Shown: in pieces, positions 10,918 through 37,882 of the stretch
Layout: the number at the start of each line of letters is the position of its first letter
Position numbering within the stretch: position 1 is the stretch's first letter
Origin: a virus
DNA length: 64,000 nt
IMG/VR virus record: IMGVR_UViG_3300031952_000013
Span: 20,861 to 84,860 of that record
Reading direction: 5' to 3' (one strand)
Notes under the pieces: model-generated
Databases searched by the model: none
Seen by the model: the letters and a program-made list of their open reading frames with translations, nothing else
Told to the model about the DNA's origin: nothing
Position numbers and translations under genes: made by a program

Positions 10918-11562
10918 GTGGCAGAAAATCTAACTCAGGAGTCTCTTTATTTTTTCCTGTTTAACAAAGCTGTAGATATTACGGCTAGGTCAATGGATTA
11001 TCTCCCGCCCACAAGGATAAAGGAGACGGCTCACGACATCACGGTGGATTTTTTGTTCTTCAGTCAGAGCTATAGGCTGACTTACGATGTATCTAGGGAT
11101 ATAATGCCGTTTTTCTCTTCCTATGTGAGGAAAAAGTTGCGGAGAGCCTGGGAGGTCTTTAATGCAGAGTTGGTTGGGAGCGGCTCCAACTGGAATGGGT
11201 CGGTGGAGAGGGTCCGGGGTTGTTCTAGGGTTGAAACTTGGATTGAATTTAAGGATTGTGTTGAACGGATTAGGAGTTTGGTGAGGGGGAAGGTCTATGA
11301 TGGGGTTTCTGTGGAATCAGTTTTGAAGGCTGGTTTGTATCTCCATGCTGACGAAGGGGTGTTGTCGATTGAGACAGTGTGTAATTACCTGGGTACTTCT
11401 AAGGTAGAGGGGGTTAGAAGCGGTCTCAAATTGATTCAAAGGCTTCTGATTTATTGTCTAGGAGCGTGTGATGAACCGTATTTTTATACAGAAAGGCCCA
11501 AAAGGGTTGGTAGAAAAGGTAACTCAGCAAGCAAAGGAAACGGCAAAGAGTCGGGGGTCTAG
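10918..11562 (+). CDS. hypothetical protein, possibly a divergent sigma-like factor
   Basis: YDVSRDIMPFFSSYVRKKL resembles sigma region 2; possible C-terminal HTH. Confidence 0.5.
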   Translation: MAENLTQESLYFFLFNKAVDITARSMDYLPPTRIKETAHDITVDFLFFSQSYRLTYDVSRDIMPFFSSYVRKKLRRAWEVFNAELVGSGSNWNGSVERVRGCSRVETWIEFKDCVERIRSLVRGKVYDGVSVESVLKAGLYLHADEGVLSIETVCNYLGTSKVEGVRSGLKLIQRLLIYCLGACDEPYFYTERPKRVGRKGNSASKGNGKESGV

Positions 11563-12262
11563 GTTTTGCTTTGACGCGTCTGATTTTTCGTGTTGGTTAG
11601 GTGAATGGCGAGATAAACTCAAAAGTTACGTTGAGTTCTCCCATCCAGGGGATATCTTTGTGGTGAATGTTGCTGGATTTGGTGAGGAACACTTTGCTTT
11701 GTTGTTAAAGAGTCTTGAAAGCCTTACAGTGGGGGAGTTTTGGTTGTATGGGCGGCTTCTTGCATCATATCCGTTAACTGTTCGCAGTCGTTGTCAAGTG
11801 ACTTTAGACCAAGAAGAAGGGGAAGTGGATATGGTGGGACTCCAGTTGGTTCTTGATGAAGTGAAAGCCATGAAGAAGTTGGATTCGGCATCCAAAGATG
11901 TTCCTAGGGCCGAATTTTTTGTCCCCTACTTATATAATCTTGGTCATTATGACACGTCGATGGCTGTTGCGATGGTGCTTCTGAAGGCGTCCTTTGTAGA
12001 TTTTTTGTATATGTTGGATGTGTCGAATTTGTCTTCATTTTCGGCACTGATGAGTTTTGCTGAAAGACTTAAAGATGAGAACGCGGTACTCAATCTATAT
12101 GAGGAATGGCTCGCTGAAAATCCTATTTTTAGTGAGAAGGAATTGCGAATTTGTCCTGCGATTCACGACCCTAAAATCAAGGCGGATTTGGACAATAAAT
12201 TGGTGCTTGGTAAATTTTTTGTTCCGTATTTAATCTGCGCCAAAATGGTCAAGTCGAAATGA
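11468..12262 (+). CDS. holB: DNA polymerase III delta-prime-like clamp loader subunit
   Basis: ALLLKSLE ... PLTVRSRCQ (SRC motif), no intact Walker A. Confidence 0.65.
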   Translation: MMNRIFIQKGPKGLVEKVTQQAKETAKSRGSRFCFDASDFSCWLGEWRDKLKSYVEFSHPGDIFVVNVAGFGEEHFALLLKSLESLTVGEFWLYGRLLASYPLTVRSRCQVTLDQEEGEVDMVGLQLVLDEVKAMKKLDSASKDVPRAEFFVPYLYNLGHYDTSMAVAMVLLKASFVDFLYMLDVSNLSSFSALMSFAERLKDENAVLNLYEEWLAENPIFSEKELRICPAIHDPKIKADLDNKLVLGKFFVPYLICAKMVKSK

Positions 12263-13218
12263 CGTATAGAAGATTCCTCACCGATTTCGATGTACAGTTA
12301 CGCACTAAGTCTGTGTGGCTAATTGAAGGGGGGGAAGAAATAGTGCGAAGTGACGCTCTTTATATTCTGAAAAAGAAGTTTCAGCACCCACTGGCTAGAA
12401 TAAAGACGAAGTTGCCTTTGCAGTATCGGGAAGTGACCTATCACCTGTCGGATATAGTGAATTTGCCGACTGCTGTATCGACTGAATCGGCTTTTACCCT
12501 GACTGTAATACGATGGGAGAAGGGGTTATTGAACGAGAAGGAGACTAAACTGTTCCTTCGTGGGTGCAGGGATTCAAAATACTGGTTTGCAATTGTTGAT
12601 GCGACGGGAGAGGTTGGTAAAGTTTTTAAAGAAGTGTTTCCAAAACTCTCAAAGGGGGTTTCTGTTGACTGTAGGAAGATTTCAGAGGATGAGGAGTCAA
12701 AAAAGTCTCTGGTGTCTAGGAGGCTGGGGATTGTTGGCGCGAGTCCGAATGAGGATGTGATTAAATACCTTGCATCGGGTGATGAGATTTACGGAGGGTG
12801 GTTGTTTAACATTTTTTATATCCTAGAGGCTCTTAAAGAACCGAAGGTAGATGTTGATATGCTTAGGAAGCACAGTCTGATGGTTCCTAACATCGAATAT
12901 TATTTGATGAAAACACTTCTTGACAAAGGTAAGTTGGCTTTTTTGTCACTCCCGACGATTGATTATGACGATGGAAAGCTATTACGGTGTATTATAAGAG
13001 AGTTAATTTTAATACTGAATTGCAAGACGGTTCGTGGGAATAGCGACCAGAAGAAGTGCGGTATGGTTGGACTTCCCTATATGACGTTTTTGGCGTATAA
13101 AGACAAGTTAAAGAAAGTTGACTTGTTGCTTCTTTACCGTAGGTTGTATCTGACTTTCAAGACGCTTCGTTATGGAGGCCTCAAGGGGTCGGTGCTTTTA
13201 TTGTTGTCTATGTGGTAG
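12259..13218 (+). CDS. holA: DNA polymerase III delta-like clamp loader subunit
   Basis: N-terminal VWLIEGGEE, 319 aa, HolA-like C-terminal helical pattern (GLPYM..AY..KLKK..L..TLRYG); coupled to the holB-like gene. Confidence 0.6.
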   Translation: MTYRRFLTDFDVQLRTKSVWLIEGGEEIVRSDALYILKKKFQHPLARIKTKLPLQYREVTYHLSDIVNLPTAVSTESAFTLTVIRWEKGLLNEKETKLFLRGCRDSKYWFAIVDATGEVGKVFKEVFPKLSKGVSVDCRKISEDEESKKSLVSRRLGIVGASPNEDVIKYLASGDEIYGGWLFNIFYILEALKEPKVDVDMLRKHSLMVPNIEYYLMKTLLDKGKLAFLSLPTIDYDDGKLLRCIIRELILILNCKTVRGNSDQKKCGMVGLPYMTFLAYKDKLKKVDLLLLYRRLYLTFKTLRYGGLKGSVLLLLSMW

Positions 13219-18527: not shown

Positions 18528-20717
18528 ATGAAGTTTGTATCCGTAACTACCAAAGAGCAGTTAAGTAGGTTGTGTCAACGTCTGTCTGATTTTAAAGGGA
18601 TTGTCGCTCTGGATATTGAAACCGAGTCAACTAATCCGTGGAGAGACGATATTGTGGGCATTGGACTCTGTTGGGGGGAGGCAGGAAGTGCATACATACC
18701 TATAAAACATAGGTATGACCAACCTTTTGAGTCACAATACGCTCTGAATATGCTCAAGAAGCCGCTTGAGGCGGTTGATTTGTGTTGTTTTAACGCCCCT
18801 TTTGACCTTGAGTTTCTTGATTTGAGAGGCGGAATAAGACCAAAATTGCCTGTAGATGTGGCTATTTTGGCTTATATAAACGCAAAATATGAGGCTTTAA
18901 ACCTTAAACATGTCTGTTCTATCGAACTTCCTGGGGTTAAAACAAGCTCTTTTAAGGATTTAATGCTTGAATATGACCTGAAACCATCTAAAAACTCGAT
19001 TTCGGAACTTCCTATCGGGGTTGTAACCGATTATTGCGGTCGGGATGCCCTAGCTACGTTCCTTTTATACCGAAAATTGTTCGATTCGGTCAAAAATCAC
19101 CCTATTTACCCTCTGGAAAGCCGACTTTTGCCTGTAACTATGTGGTTGAGGCGAAACGGGGTGCTTATTGACCGGAGTTTCTTTGAAGATGAGGAAAAGA
19201 CGCTTTTGGAGGAGTTGGGAGAGGTAAAAAGCATTATAGGAGCACAAATTTCAGATGCTTCGGGTCAAAAAGTCGATTTTAACATTGGTTCGTCAAAACA
19301 ACTGGGTCAAGTCCTTTATAAGACCTTAAAATTGAGGTGTGACGAGTATACGCCGACTGGACAACCCAGGACTGACAAGGAACAGCTTGCAAAGTACAAA
19401 TGGAAGCACCCCGTGGTCAAAAATATTGTTACTTTCAAGGAAATTCAGAAACTCCTCTCGACTTATTACTCAAACTACATGAAATACGTCGAGAAGGATG
19501 GTCGAATCCATGCAAGTTATAATCAAACAGGCGTACCCACAGGTCGGTATAGTTGTTCTGACCCTAATTTGCAGAACATTCCTGATAAGAATGCGTGGGA
19601 AATTGAGACCCCGGCAGGTAAAAAAGCGGTTTGTGCCGGTATGCGAAATGGTTTCATAGTGCCTGAAGACTGTTGGTTTGTCGAATTTGATTATAGTCAG
19701 ATAGAAGCGAGACTAGCAGCAGGGGTGACACAGGAGCCGATTCTGCTAAATGCTTTTTCTGAGGGGATTGATTACCACACAAAGACCGCATCTTTGGTGT
19801 TCAGCATCCCTGTGGATAGCGTGACGAAAGAACAGAGGAGGATGGCCAAGAGATTGAACTTTGCTTTGTCCTATGGGATGGGAACAAACAAGTTGTGGCG
19901 GGTGCTTAATGAGGATATTCCTATTTCGTACAAGGATTCGGCGGGGTTCAGAGACACTTATGTGAAGTCTTATCCTACAATGTTTCACATGGCTGAGGTT
20001 ATCGGAAAGAACGCCGAGAGAACGAGGTATGTTGATACAATCTTCGGTAGGCGTATTCCTGTGTTTGAATTCCTTAAAGGGGATGAAAAGTCGTTGCAAG
20101 ACGGGAGGCGCATGGCTTATAATGGGGTAATCCAAGGTAGTGCCGCAGATATTTTAAAAAGAGGTCTGATTAAGACTTGGAATTTGATAAACCGCAAATA
20201 TGGGATGGATAACGTCAAATTGACCATGACGATACACGATTCGATGGAATTTGAGGTCAAAAAAGACATTCCGATGGTTGAGTTCGTTAAAGATGTGATT
20301 GCAGAGACGAGATTGTGCTTGAAAGGATTTCCTGTGATGTTTGTAGAACCCTCTGTTGGAAATGTCTGGGGCGGGTTGCAATCTCCTCAAAAAGAGGAGG
20401 ATTTTAACATGTTTTTCGCCCGATTGTCAGGAAAAACGACAGTTGACCTGTCGGTTAAGCCTGTGGTTGTGAATGGCTCAAATGGACGAATTTTTGTGGT
20501 TGAATTGCCGGAATTTACCAAAGATGGTAGTTTCCGTACTATGACCCAGGTTGTAACTCTGAGGAATTACCTTGTGGGGCATCCTGGGAAGAATAAAGTG
20601 GTCTTGAAGATAGGTTCCCGTGAAGAGACACTTCCCTTTGACACGGCGATTAATCTAGAAGACAAAGACAGGATTGCTTTGATGATAGGAGCGCGTTTCT
20701 ATGAGAGGGTAGGATGA
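18528..20717 (+). CDS. polA: family A DNA polymerase with 3'-5' exonuclease and C-terminal extension
   Basis: ExoI ALDIET, ExoII FNAPFD, ExoIII YCGRDA; TGRYS..PNLQNIP; motif A DYSQIEAR, B RRMAKRLNFALSYG, C TIHDS. Confidence 0.95.
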   Translation: MKFVSVTTKEQLSRLCQRLSDFKGIVALDIETESTNPWRDDIVGIGLCWGEAGSAYIPIKHRYDQPFESQYALNMLKKPLEAVDLCCFNAPFDLEFLDLRGGIRPKLPVDVAILAYINAKYEALNLKHVCSIELPGVKTSSFKDLMLEYDLKPSKNSISELPIGVVTDYCGRDALATFLLYRKLFDSVKNHPIYPLESRLLPVTMWLRRNGVLIDRSFFEDEEKTLLEELGEVKSIIGAQISDASGQKVDFNIGSSKQLGQVLYKTLKLRCDEYTPTGQPRTDKEQLAKYKWKHPVVKNIVTFKEIQKLLSTYYSNYMKYVEKDGRIHASYNQTGVPTGRYSCSDPNLQNIPDKNAWEIETPAGKKAVCAGMRNGFIVPEDCWFVEFDYSQIEARLAAGVTQEPILLNAFSEGIDYHTKTASLVFSIPVDSVTKEQRRMAKRLNFALSYGMGTNKLWRVLNEDIPISYKDSAGFRDTYVKSYPTMFHMAEVIGKNAERTRYVDTIFGRRIPVFEFLKGDEKSLQDGRRMAYNGVIQGSAADILKRGLIKTWNLINRKYGMDNVKLTMTIHDSMEFEVKKDIPMVEFVKDVIAETRLCLKGFPVMFVEPSVGNVWGGLQSPQKEEDFNMFFARLSGKTTVDLSVKPVVVNGSNGRIFVVELPEFTKDGSFRTMTQVVTLRNYLVGHPGKNKVVLKIGSREETLPFDTAINLEDKDRIALMIGARFYERVG

Positions 20718-21721
20718 AAGTACAATTCTTGACTGCTAAAGAGTTGGTAGATAAGATGGGGTACAGCTTGAAGTCTGGAGGGAATGTTTATGGATATGAA
20801 GTGGCTTCTGGTATTGCCTTGAATAGTTTAAAGGGAGCCGGAGTAGAAATTGCCGAGGATGCGAGGTTGTGTTTGCAGTACACCCCCCCACATTGGTTTA
20901 CTCCTATAGAGGGTAAAATTAATGTGATTTTCTCAATGTGGGAGGCTGAGAATATTCCACCTGATTTACTTGAATCGTTTGTTAAGGCTGACGCTATTAT
21001 TGTGCCATCTAAGAATTCAAAGGAGGCTTTGAAGAGAGGCGGGATATTGAAGCCTATCTATATTTGCCATCAGGCCTGTGATACAGATTTTTACTACTTC
21101 AAAGAACACGAAACGGCTGGTTTGGGAGGGACTGTTAGGTTTTTATGGGTTGGTGCGCCGAATGTTCGTAAGGGGTACGACTTGGCAATTCAGGCCTTCT
21201 ACGAGGCGTTCCATAACACAGGGGCTAACGTAGAATTGTATGTTAAGTCTACTCTGGAGGGGAAAGAAGGGGAAATCACTCCCATGACTAGATTTAATGC
21301 TGTTGTTGATACAAGGAATTTGCCGAAAGAGCAGTTGAGGGAGCTTTACTGGTCGTCTCAGGCGTTTCTATATCCATCTAGAGGAGAAGGGGCAGGGCTG
21401 CCCCCTATGGAGGCGATGTCAACGGGGCTGCCGGTTATTGGGCCTAGATATGGTGGGATGAGAGACTACATGTTTTCTGACTATTCTTATCCTGTGAAGT
21501 GGAAAATGGTGGAGTGCGAATATGGTATTAAAACTAGATTATGCGAAGTGGATATAGATGATTTGATTACTGTTCTGTGGAAGGTGTATAATAATATTCC
21601 TCAGGCTCTTGCTAAGGGAGAGGGCGCATCAAAGTTTGTCAATTGGGTATTCTCCCCTCAGATGATGGGGAAATCACTGACTGGTGTTTTAGAGACAATT
21701 GAGGAGAAATATAATGAGTGA
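20714..21721 (+). CDS. glycosyltransferase family 4 (GT-B)
   Basis: RKGYD; YPSRGEGAGLPPMEAMSTGLPVI (EX7E motif). Confidence 0.9.
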   Translation: MKVQFLTAKELVDKMGYSLKSGGNVYGYEVASGIALNSLKGAGVEIAEDARLCLQYTPPHWFTPIEGKINVIFSMWEAENIPPDLLESFVKADAIIVPSKNSKEALKRGGILKPIYICHQACDTDFYYFKEHETAGLGGTVRFLWVGAPNVRKGYDLAIQAFYEAFHNTGANVELYVKSTLEGKEGEITPMTRFNAVVDTRNLPKEQLRELYWSSQAFLYPSRGEGAGLPPMEAMSTGLPVIGPRYGGMRDYMFSDYSYPVKWKMVECEYGIKTRLCEVDIDDLITVLWKVYNNIPQALAKGEGASKFVNWVFSPQMMGKSLTGVLETIEEKYNE

Positions 21722-30872: not shown

Positions 30873-31964
30873 ATGAAGTTTATTATTCGCAGACCGTTTT
30901 TGTTGGCGTTATTGGAGAAAGCCTGGACTGTGACTATCGGGGGTACTCTTTCTACAACTAAGGGTTTTTACTTTGTCCAGAAAGACGATACCCTGACGGT
31001 TGCTCGTACTGACAGTATCTTGAGTGCGGTGGCTTCTACTAATGTGGTTAATTGGGTGAATAAAGAAGCTCCCAACGAATTCCTTGTGGATGCCGAAAAG
31101 TTCCTCCGGCTGATTAGAGGTCTTGCTTGCGATGAGGTTTCTCTTTCAGTTGAGGATAATGAAATTGCGATTTCTGGAGACAACTTCAATGCAGAGTGGC
31201 TCCTGTTCGATTTAAAAGACTTTCCGAAATTGCCTGTGTATCACAGGGAGATGAGCCTAGAAGTGCCTACAATCGAGTTTGTGGGGGCAGTAGACAGGAT
31301 TCGCTACGCTGCGTCGATTGAATCCCTGACTTCTGCTTATAAACAGATTTACTTTGAGAACGGGGCATGTTGGGCGACTGATGGTTATAACTACCAGGCT
31401 GTTGAAACTAAAATTACACTCCCAAATCAAGTTGCTCTGCCTCTTATCGGATTGGATGTTGTAAAGTTTTTGCGTCTCTCAGGTGTCAGTTCGTTCTTTT
31501 TGTCGTGGGATGATGACCACTACTATTTTATGATAGGGAATGACGCTTTTGTATGTCGGCGATCTCCGGTTCAACCTCCTAATCCTTTATTGGATTTCTA
31601 CGGTAAGTTGAGTATGGAGTATCATAAACTTCCCTATTTCACTTTTGAAGTCAGATTGCTTCGCCGGATTGTTGAGAGAGTGGCTATTACCGGTAGTTTT
31701 TCTAACAAACGAATCTGGTTTCATGTGACTCCTACAACTTTGACTATCAATGGGGTCGATGAGGACGGGAATTCCAGTTCAGAGGTGCTTATTATCACTT
31801 TAAATGGAGATAAGACAGATAGAACGCTTGGGATTCACTACGAAATGCTACTGTCTGCGTTAGCTTCTGTGAGGAAGGAATCAGCCAATTTTAGATTCAA
31901 CAAGAATCATTTTCTTATTACGTCGGAGGATAGTACAGCTATTCTCCCCTTGTTGAAAAAATGA
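30873..31964 (+). CDS. dnaN: DNA polymerase III beta sliding clamp
   Basis: 363 aa three-domain size; ARTD, DFPKLP, ATDGY, C-terminal AILPL. Confidence 0.88.
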   Translation: MKFIIRRPFLLALLEKAWTVTIGGTLSTTKGFYFVQKDDTLTVARTDSILSAVASTNVVNWVNKEAPNEFLVDAEKFLRLIRGLACDEVSLSVEDNEIAISGDNFNAEWLLFDLKDFPKLPVYHREMSLEVPTIEFVGAVDRIRYAASIESLTSAYKQIYFENGACWATDGYNYQAVETKITLPNQVALPLIGLDVVKFLRLSGVSSFFLSWDDDHYYFMIGNDAFVCRRSPVQPPNPLLDFYGKLSMEYHKLPYFTFEVRLLRRIVERVAITGSFSNKRIWFHVTPTTLTINGVDEDGNSSSEVLIITLNGDKTDRTLGIHYEMLLSALASVRKESANFRFNKNHFLITSEDSTAILPLLKK

Positions 31965-36372: not shown

Positions 36373-37506
36373 TTGAGTCAGTGGAATATTTCTTGGCGGC
36401 CTCGTGGATTTGGCGGTGTAGTTGGGCAAGAGCATGTGGTTCTATTCTTTCAAAAAGTTCTGGCTAACTGGTTTGATAAAGGAGAAACTCTGCCTATTGG
36501 AGTTTTGTTTGGGGGGCCGAGTGGAGTCGGAAAAACGACAATTGCTAGGATAATAGGGGCATCTTTAAACTGTGATTGTCGAGTGGGGGTGGAACCGTGT
36601 GGGATGTGTAAATCGTGTAAGGATATTATAACAGGTACGGGAGGGATTTTAGAAATAGACGCAGCCTTTTTTGGTTTAGTTGATAATATTCGACAATTAA
36701 GGCAGCGATTAAGTTCATATGCTTTTAGTTCTTACCAGGTTGTTTTAATTGATGAGTGCCATGTTATGTCCCGCGAGGCATTTAATGTCTTACTCAAGTT
36801 GCTTGAGGAGCCATTGGACAGGGTATTCTTTATTCTGGTGACTACAGCGACAGATAAGGTTATAGAGACTGTAAGAAGTAGGTTGATTGAATTCCGCTTC
36901 AAGTCGCTAAAATGGGATGTGGTATTTCCTTACATTTCTAAACTCCTCCAGGCTGAAGGGATTTTGTGTGAGTCGGAGGACATTGTAAAAAAACTTTACA
37001 TGATAGCTGACCACAATTTTAGGGAGTTGCTGATGATGTTGGAGCAAGCTGCGGTTGTGGGTAATGGTAATATCTCGTCGGATGTTCTTCGGGGGCTTTA
37101 TGGGAATCTGATGGTCTTTGATTCTATCATTGATTCTCTGGTGGAAGGGGATTTTGTTGGAGCGATTTCGTATTACGATGAGTATAGGTCAATGCAGCCG
37201 GATTTTTCTATCTTCTTGTCGGGATTTTTAGATGTACTGACGGATAGGTTGAAGGTTGGTTTGAGGTCTGGTGATTCACGTTCTCCAATATATTTAGCAA
37301 TAATTAAGAGTGTGTATGAACTTTTAGGGATGCGTTTGACGACTAAAGGGGGTGTACAGGCCAAGTTGCTTTTTGCGAATGTGGTCCAACTGGTTAAAGG
37401 AGCAGAGGCTGGTCGTACTGGAACAGGGAAGTCATTAAATGAAGAAGATGTATTTAACTTACTGACTGGTAAAGGGAAGTCGGTAGGTGCTGAGTCGAAA
37501 CACTAA
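36373..37506 (+). CDS. dnaX: DNA polymerase III gamma/tau clamp-loader ATPase
   Basis: WRP..F..VVGQEH, GPSGVGKTT, Zn module PCGMCKSC, IDECH, FNVLLKLLEEP, TVRSR. Confidence 0.93.
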   Translation: MSQWNISWRPRGFGGVVGQEHVVLFFQKVLANWFDKGETLPIGVLFGGPSGVGKTTIARIIGASLNCDCRVGVEPCGMCKSCKDIITGTGGILEIDAAFFGLVDNIRQLRQRLSSYAFSSYQVVLIDECHVMSREAFNVLLKLLEEPLDRVFFILVTTATDKVIETVRSRLIEFRFKSLKWDVVFPYISKLLQAEGILCESEDIVKKLYMIADHNFRELLMMLEQAAVVGNGNISSDVLRGLYGNLMVFDSIIDSLVEGDFVGAISYYDEYRSMQPDFSIFLSGFLDVLTDRLKVGLRSGDSRSPIYLAIIKSVYELLGMRLTTKGGVQAKLLFANVVQLVKGAEAGRTGTGKSLNEEDVFNLLTGKGKSVGAESKH

Positions 37507-37882
37507 AGAAGCCTATGGTCCCTATGAGTCTGCCTATAAATCAATAACTCAAGACGCAGAAAAGGAGTTCCTGGCTAAGGTAGGAACCCTCACTGTGTTT
37601 CATAAAATCCTCATTGACCGAGTGGCTGATGCCTATGTTGCAGTCTTGAAGGCTGGTGAGATCACCCAAATTGGGGGGGATAATAAAGAGAAAGCGTCAG
37701 AACTCTTGACCAAGTGGTTAAGAGTTTCGTTAGCTGAACTGCATACGGCAGCCTTGGAAAAACAATCTAGGTTGCTATTTTTTGAGAAGGTTGTAGATAT
37801 TGCTGAAAAGTCCGTCGCTGATGTATACTCTAGGAAGGAGTTGCTGACAAAGTTACGGGACTTGGTTGAGGAGAGAGGGTAA
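37487..37882 (+). CDS. helical protein, candidate terminase small subunit
   Basis: Size and position upstream of TerL; inference only. Confidence 0.45.
   Translation: MLSRNTKEAYGPYESAYKSITQDAEKEFLAKVGTLTVFHKILIDRVADAYVAVLKAGEITQIGGDNKEKASELLTKWLRVSLAELHTAALEKQSRLLFFEKVVDIAEKSVADVYSRKELLTKLRDLVEERG

Follow-up and report, generated by a model that had tools for sequence, protein, structure and literature searches.

A predicted DnaE-type C-terminal domain on a phage family A DNA polymerase encoded with DnaX and DnaN

We analyzed a 64,000-nucleotide stretch of viral DNA, here called the window, which covers positions 20,861 to 84,860 of the 84,860-bp IMG/VR virus record IMGVR_UViG_3300031952_000013 (CheckV completeness 100%), and we describe its family A DNA polymerase (PolA), whose C-terminal end is predicted to resemble the tau-binding domain of DnaE, the alpha subunit of DNA polymerase III (Pol III). 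The polA gene lies at 18528..20717 on the + strand; in the open reading frame (ORF) list and its translation it encodes 729 residues plus a stop codon, which shares bases with the ATG of the downstream gene at 20714. Pfam reveals the architecture of a family A (Pol I-type) enzyme, with an N-terminal 3'-5' exonuclease domain at residues 4-185 (18537..19082, + strand; PF01612, 5.3e-15) and a polymerase domain from residue 226 to ~615 (19203..20372, + strand; PF00476) that has VGNVWG at its end. The PF00476 (DNA_pol_A) match itself covers residues 226-581 (2.7e-89; profile positions 7-345 of 381), while in relatives it reaches positions 380-381 of 381, with the extension following right after. 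The initial annotation had claimed about 110 extra residues beyond VGNVWG, and this is borne out: the motif occupies residues 610-615, and 114 residues (616-729; window positions 20373-20714) come after it, the interval originally marked, 20400-20717, lying inside that stretch. The extension begins with a 36-residue linker (residues 616-651; 20373..20480, + strand), which in two alignments, A2 and A3, is mostly variable outside one amphipathic helix at residues 626-634 (20403..20429, + strand). This helix is conserved in both alignments, with the motif E-x-hydrophobic-E-x-F-hydrophobic-x-R, and it appears in an AlphaFold2 (AF2) model of the extension (H16-24) at a low predicted local distance difference test score (pLDDT) of ~55-60. 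The linker leads into the predicted DnaE-like domain at residues 652-729 (20481..20714, + strand), which the translation places at the extreme C-terminus of PolA and ahead of which neither Pfam nor the AF2 model contains an OB domain.

The extension is both real and unusual, as a tblastn search with the window PolA shows: at least 5000 of 50,697 phage records matched, and among the best 30 rows inspected none ran beyond query residue 677, most stopping at 572-626. It is present in at least 14 metagenomic PolA relatives. A word-indexed search with residues 611-729 recovered, among 123 candidates, the window protein and one relative, P0002, which is 75% identical to the window PolA over the whole protein and 67% in the extension. 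An exhaustive profile search over 1.84 billion protein representatives (cut-off E ≤ 1e-3) gave 14 matches, 11 of which are PolA proteins, or fragments of them, that carry the stretch at their C-terminus; P0014, P0016, and P0017, which are short and multi-stretch, were left out. Pfam found PF00476 in nine of the ten extension-bearing matches scanned, and a further search added two more extension-bearing members. The degree of identity to P0002, together with the recurrence of the stretch at PolA C-termini, argues against a read-through artefact. Five residues of the extension, G77, N79, G111, F114, and E116 in its own numbering, are invariant in A3, an alignment of 15 sequences. The exhaustive search contained no stand-alone version of the domain; P0005, P0007, P0008, and P0012 were considered as such and rejected, as they start within the PolA domain and look like contig-end fragments. 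The PHROGs collection has no family for the PolA extension. One metagenomic relative of 1078 residues, P0006, carries a LAGLIDADG homing-endonuclease intein in its polymerase domain (PF14528, PF05204) and keeps the C-terminal domain.

The domain of reference is the C-terminal domain (CTD) of DnaE1/Pol III alpha, by which we mean E. coli residues 1079-1160, Taq residues ~1127-1201, Pfam PF20914, and the "CTD" of Timinskas et al. 2014. The AF2 model of the extension, computed from A3, has a mean pLDDT of 68.5, rising to 72-84 over the last ~60 residues, which form its core; a two-sequence model reached a pLDDT of 50.6 and was left unused. Strands and helices follow in the order beta1-alpha1-beta2-beta3-alpha2-beta4. 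A Foldseek search with this model against 350,542 Protein Data Bank (PDB) chains (E ≤ 10) gave 296 matches, and ranks 1-7 are all Pol III alpha (Taq 2hpi, 4iqj, and 3e0d; E. coli 5fku), the top one at E 3.6e-2 and probability 0.99. A search with VIA-align over 48,161 PDB representatives, independent of Foldseek, placed model residues 42-119 on Taq alpha (2hpi) residues 1127-1201 at rank 1 (Z 6.0, root-mean-square deviation (rmsd) 2.5, 70 aligned residues, 20% identity) and on E. coli alpha (5fku) residues 1076-1156 at rank 2 (Z 4.4, rmsd 3.5, 73 aligned, 19% identity); rank 3 falls to Z 2.7, and just 32 of the 48,161 chains have Z ≥ 2. A separate model of the complete PolA is available in the ESM Atlas (pLDDT 0.81), and a structure search there with residues 645-729 returned DnaE clusters and DnaE C-terminal fragments at template-modelling (TM) scores of 0.66-0.75 over residues 651-729, while its feature search returned a PF20914-bearing cluster at a score of 0.91. 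The likeness to the DnaE C-terminus claimed in the initial annotation is therefore supported by two independent predicted structures and three structure searches, as well as by the profile-profile comparison given below. In these models, which are of moderate confidence, the domain superposes on solved DnaE C-terminal domains. Its structural equivalence to the DnaE CTD is well supported for a predicted model, and the evidence supports viewing the last 78 residues of PolA (652-729) as a counterpart of the extreme C-terminal, tau-binding domain of Pol III alpha.

Some sequence comparisons point in the same direction. The pattern L..L...L..HPG...V.L...LP...L..L.G, which had been recognized by eye, is real and aligns in register with the DnaE C-termini of three phyla, Actinomycetota, Bacillota, and Fusobacteriota. 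Eight DnaE-type C-termini from phyla other than Pseudomonadota were taken from PLSDB, among them one from Sulfurovum that ends without such a domain. A profile of 23 phage CTD sequences scored five of the eight at 10 bits or more (Rhodococcus 15.8, Streptomyces 13.7, Fusobacterium 11.5, Nonomuraea 10.4, and Paenibacillus 10.1), the remaining scores being 3.9 and 3.7 bits, and all scored sequences align in the beta1-alpha1-beta2 register. Among 40,000 composition-matched shuffles, three reached at least 10 bits and one at least 11.5 bits (an outlier at 18.4). When the phage profile was aligned by hhalign to a 12-sequence DnaE CTD profile, composed of the non-Pseudomonadota C-termini and five betaproteobacterial-type C-termini, we obtained a probability of 64.9%, a P of 6.1e-5, and a score of 28.7 over 50 columns; 200 column-permuted queries scored at most 16.9 (median 8.6), and the reversed query scored 10.5. 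At the level of sequence, then, the profile-profile match to non-proteobacterial DnaE C-termini is modestly significant.

Several of the searches weigh against this reading of the domain. PF20914 (DNA_pol_IIIA_C) did not match in the protein scan at E ≤ 1 or in a six-frame search of the genome at E ≤ 10; this model is narrow, its cut-off of 22.5 bits being passed in E. coli only among 14 control genomes. With A2 as the query profile, a search of PDB sequences retrieved no DnaE at E ≤ 10. An hhalign comparison with an alignment of 50 gammaproteobacterial DnaE C-termini, drawn from 80 loci, gave only ~1% probability and was in the wrong register, with the first half of the phage domain on the second half of the DnaE domain. 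The 23-sequence phage profile, run by hmmsearch against 76 Pseudomonadota DnaE C-termini, reached a top score of 9.7 bits, which is at control level (10.0 bits for the best of 1,520 shuffles and 8.8 bits for the best of 76 reversed sequences). In the structure searches, Foldseek gave no match at E ≤ 1e-3 against its 350,542 chains, and by VIA-align's own note a Z of 6 is middling in absolute terms. A single-sequence phmmer search of the PDB with the extension gave only chance matches to plasma kallikrein (E ~1), and BLASTP against the E. coli DnaE tail gave nothing meaningful (E 0.35 over 11 residues). Timinskas et al. 2014 (PMC3919608) describe the DnaE CTD as poorly conserved and as frequently going undetected. 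Distant homology of the phage domain to the DnaE CTD is likely but not proven.

The weakness of the sequence signal, in which PF20914 is unmatched and the Pseudomonadota DnaE comparison is not significant, as well as the middling Z and the moderate model confidence, could also reflect convergence on the fold, or a very old shared module that does not tether a replisome and serves instead as a stabilizing cap or as a DNA-binding or dimerization domain of this PolA clade; that two DnaX-encoding phages described below do without the domain would fit the same explanation. On the other hand, two DnaE representatives stand alone atop 48,161 chains, far above rank 3, the independent ESM Atlas model and library agree with this result, and the profile-profile score, obtained in the correct register, exceeds that of every permuted control. 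The domain also sits at the same extreme C-terminal position of a replicase, in phages that carry Pol III accessory proteins and no DnaE. We regard this explanation as quite improbable.

The accessory proteins in question are encoded in the window. A DnaN-type beta sliding clamp of 363 residues lies at 30873..31964 on the + strand (PF00712, 7.5e-8; PHROG 947, 2.7e-23; genome profile search, 1.4e-9), and a DnaX-type clamp-loader ATPase of 377 residues lies at 36373..37506 on the + strand (PF13177, 5.4e-27; PHROG 5846, 5.5e-46). The window also encodes RecA and other DNA-metabolism genes, while a PF07733 profile search found no DnaE in the genome. The window DnaX is 36% identical to residues 10-260 of E. 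coli DnaX, and its Pfam matches are to PF13177 and AAA families only. Its C-terminal 137 residues have no Pfam match at E ≤ 1, a scan in which PF12170 recognizes the E. coli tau control at 8.8e-58. The phage DnaX proteins that we found are all 346-443 residues long and have neither of the Pfam tau domains IV and V. They share a layout in which domain III is followed by a variable linker (Pro/Ala/Gly-rich in phages of high guanine-plus-cytosine (GC) content) and by a short, conserved acidic-hydrophobic motif at the terminus. In the window DnaX this motif covers residues 354-366 (37432..37470, + strand), is kept across a 47-member phage DnaX clade, with L364 conserved in at least 90% of the members, and is a candidate docking peptide. 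The high-GC phages have a terminal motif of a different form.

Immediately downstream, an ORF at 37487-37882 (131 residues), which overlaps the 3' end of dnaX by 20 nt in the +1 frame, was weighed as a stand-alone tau domain V or as a continuation of DnaX by frameshift. Both ideas were set aside, since neither Pfam nor PHROG recognizes the ORF and PF12170 is unmatched in the genome; its product is probably an independent helical protein, encoded ahead of putative packaging genes. Two further ORFs, at 11468 and 12259 (11468-13218), likewise have no Pfam or PHROG match at the thresholds applied, and the HolA-like and HolB-like labels given to them are unconfirmed and were left unused.

To see how the extension is distributed, we scanned IMG/VR with a full-length PolA alignment, which yielded 80 loci. 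Past the normal PolA end, eight ORFs continue for 97 residues or more, the other 72 for no more than 62. The eight bearers are L085 (a relative of the window's clade), L088, L161, and five high-GC phages of 125-152 kb, and their C-termini align with the window domain. DnaX was surveyed in 48 of the 80 records, namely all those of at least 21 kb, and PF13177 was found in nine: seven of the eight records with the extension and two of the 40 without it. The sole bearer that has no PF13177 match is a fragment, 27% complete. This association has a Fisher p of 3.7e-6, a value to be read with the fact that the records are not phylogenetically independent, the seven positives representing perhaps three or four lineages. 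We examined 12 records further, comprising the eight carriers, the two exceptions, the window's genome, and Microbacterium phage Magritte (OR553905.1). DnaE (PF07733) is found in none of the 12; DnaN is found in ten, the other two being fragments, so that every complete carrier phage encodes DnaN. Magritte, which has been cultured, encodes an 888-residue "DNA polymerase I" whose C-terminus bears a domain of this kind, as well as a DnaX-type ORF and a weak match to DnaN.

Based on the predicted fold and on this co-occurrence with DnaX and DnaN in phages that have no DnaE, we propose that the most likely function of the domain is that of a docking module, which would tether PolA to the phage clamp-loader/clamp machinery; we place the probability of this reading at roughly one half. 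That the domain binds anything, and which partner it binds, we infer. The window's phage encodes no DnaE but carries a beta clamp of Pol III type and a short DnaX clamp loader, and it is on this machinery of the phage's own that the PolA C-terminal domain would dock. The docking partner would be the short conserved motif carried on a flexible linker at the DnaX C-terminus, not tau domain V, and the phage DnaX could thereby serve as a "mini-tau".

Several observations weigh against this proposal. The window DnaX has neither tau domain IV (PF12168) nor tau domain V (PF12170), and PF12170 is not found anywhere in the phage genome at E ≤ 10; being gamma-length and without these domains, DnaX cannot supply the canonical tau domain V partner, which is thus not phage-encoded. 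By eye, the phage DnaX tails resemble the C-terminal alpha-binding segment of bacterial tau, but we rejected this as evidence, since a hidden Markov model (HMM) of ~40 bacterial tau C-termini does not recognize the phage tails (top score 2.5 bits, under the shuffles). L086 (record G005) and L090 (G008) encode DnaX, yet their PolA runs only 25-30 residues past the normal end, and neither record holds a copy of the extension domain elsewhere; G005 encodes DnaN besides DnaX. Finally, a motif like that of the DnaX tail is also present in PolA, in the linker helix (residues 626-634) of the window protein and in a tail beyond the domain in several relatives. In favor of the DnaX tail, the unstructured last 18 residues of E. 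coli tau are essential for binding alpha (PMC1888804), and, according to PMC4703070, E. coli and Taq have mutually unrelated C-terminal domains on tau, though each binds the alpha tail. Given these two precedents, it is reasonable to see a candidate partner in a phage DnaX that bears a short docking peptide of its own.

The missing tau domain V bears as well on the possibility that the domain binds host tau, so that mimicry of the DnaE CTD would plug PolA into the host hub of clamp loader and DnaB helicase, displacing or joining host Pol III. According to PMC4703070 and PMC3919608, tau is the only established partner of the DnaE CTD fold, and a tau domain V is not encoded by the phage. The best matches of the phage profile are, moreover, cellular DnaE1 C-termini, those of Rhodococcus and Streptomyces at the scores given above, and the carrier phage Magritte has an actinobacterial host. 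However, use of the host loader would make the phage-encoded DnaX and DnaN that co-occur with the domain needless, and an identity of ~20% to any DnaE CTD is low for a domain that would mimic the interface of a single host. Binding to host tau appears unlikely.

The motif shared by DnaX and PolA bears on another alternative, as it equally indicates a shared third partner such as the clamp. Under this explanation, the domain and the short acidic-hydrophobic motifs would serve the clamp or another common hub (beta clamp, SSB tail, or helicase) instead of a contact between DnaX and PolA. The motifs of DnaX, of the PolA linker, and of certain PolA tails would then all act as peptides of the clamp-binding type, with the domain either placing them or touching the clamp itself. 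Similar motifs do occur on DnaX and PolA of one lineage, both in the window, between the DnaX tail and the PolA linker helix, and in the high-GC phages, whose PolA and DnaX tails are alike, and this likeness of tails fits a shared third partner at least as well as it fits direct docking. All complete carriers encode DnaN, and in E. coli the polymerase and the loader compete for one site on the clamp, which we count in favor of this explanation. In B. subtilis, according to PMC3919608, DnaE3 is kept at the fork via the SSB tail and the role of the CTD differs. Speaking against it, the motifs do not fit the bacterial clamp-binding consensus QL[SD]LF when compared by eye. The clamp contact described in PMC4703070 is, furthermore, made through the OB domain, which the phage protein does not have. 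We consider a clamp or hub function unlikely, and we retain docking on the phage's own clamp-loader/clamp machinery as our preferred reading.

A broader idea, which we advance only tentatively, is that the tether between tau and alpha forms a two-piece module that can be transferred. In three or more divergent phage lineages (the window's clade, the high-GC phages of 125-152 kb, and Magritte with its relatives), the DnaE docking domain may have been moved to a non-homologous family A polymerase, with tau reduced to a gamma-length DnaX plus a docking peptide. Such a "mini-tau" could keep a single PolA molecule or several attached to the clamp loader, and a Pol I-type enzyme would then stand at the center of a coupled replisome in the style of Pol III.

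Compared with the CTD of DnaE1/Pol III alpha, the phage domain has the same predicted beta-alpha-beta-beta-alpha-beta fold and the same extreme C-terminal position in a replicative polymerase, carries the L..L..hPG..V.L of Actinomycetota, Bacillota, and Fusobacteriota DnaE, and likewise occurs in a genome with a beta clamp and a DnaX loader. It differs in being attached to a family A rather than a family C polymerase, with no OB domain ahead of it, in being missed by PF20914, and in that the tau domain V partner is not encoded by the phage. The phage DnaX, for its part, recalls the C-terminus of E. coli tau, whose unstructured last 18-22 residues dock onto the tail of alpha (Jergic et al. 2007; Fernandez-Leiro et al. 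2015), in that a flexible linker leads to a conserved amphipathic motif of short length, but it has no folded domain IV or V, and because the tau C-terminal HMM misses the phage tails, the likeness is one of layout only.

Other phage replicases have acquired their partners differently. T7 gp5 has a thumb insertion, the thioredoxin-binding loop, that binds host thioredoxin, and gp43 of T4 and RB69, a family B polymerase, has a short peptide as its C-terminal clamp-binding tail. As we propose for the window PolA, an addition to the phage replicase serves in these systems to recruit a factor for processivity or coupling; in the window phage, however, the addition would be a folded domain, derived from family C, that is borne by a family A polymerase. 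Textbooks present the family A replicases of phages, that of T7 for instance, as clamp-independent, and contact between tau and alpha is seen as peculiar to family C replicases.

We conclude that a known domain occurs here in an architecture and a setting that are new, the architecture being shared by the cultured phage Magritte. The literature that we searched, which did not extend to domain tables in supplementary files, contains no description of a PolA with a DnaE-type tail. The main text of the 2023 PolA reclassification (PMC10201439) makes no mention of a C-terminal domain or extension, of Pol III, or of tau; the 2021 jumbo-phage survey (PMC7824862) does not mention DnaE, Pol III, or tau, and the 2014 Pol III alpha survey (PMC3919608) does not mention phage. 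The domain has been overlooked by current annotation because all these genes are called just "DNA polymerase I". If the docking reading is correct, phages with a clamp and DnaX that lost or never had DnaE would have kept the replisome architecture while the catalytic polymerase was swapped, and coupling would be achieved via a small transferable adaptor. The system would then offer a compact and testable means of defining the minimal elements that couple a polymerase to a clamp loader, with one carrier, Magritte, already in culture.

Two other features of the window were observed. The gene that begins on the ATGA overlapping the polA stop (20714-21721) encodes a GT4-type glycosyltransferase (PF13692, PF00534) and lies within the replication gene block. 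Nearly all long ORFs of the window are on the + strand, and the GC skew is strongly positive (0.14-0.44) in each 2-kb bin.

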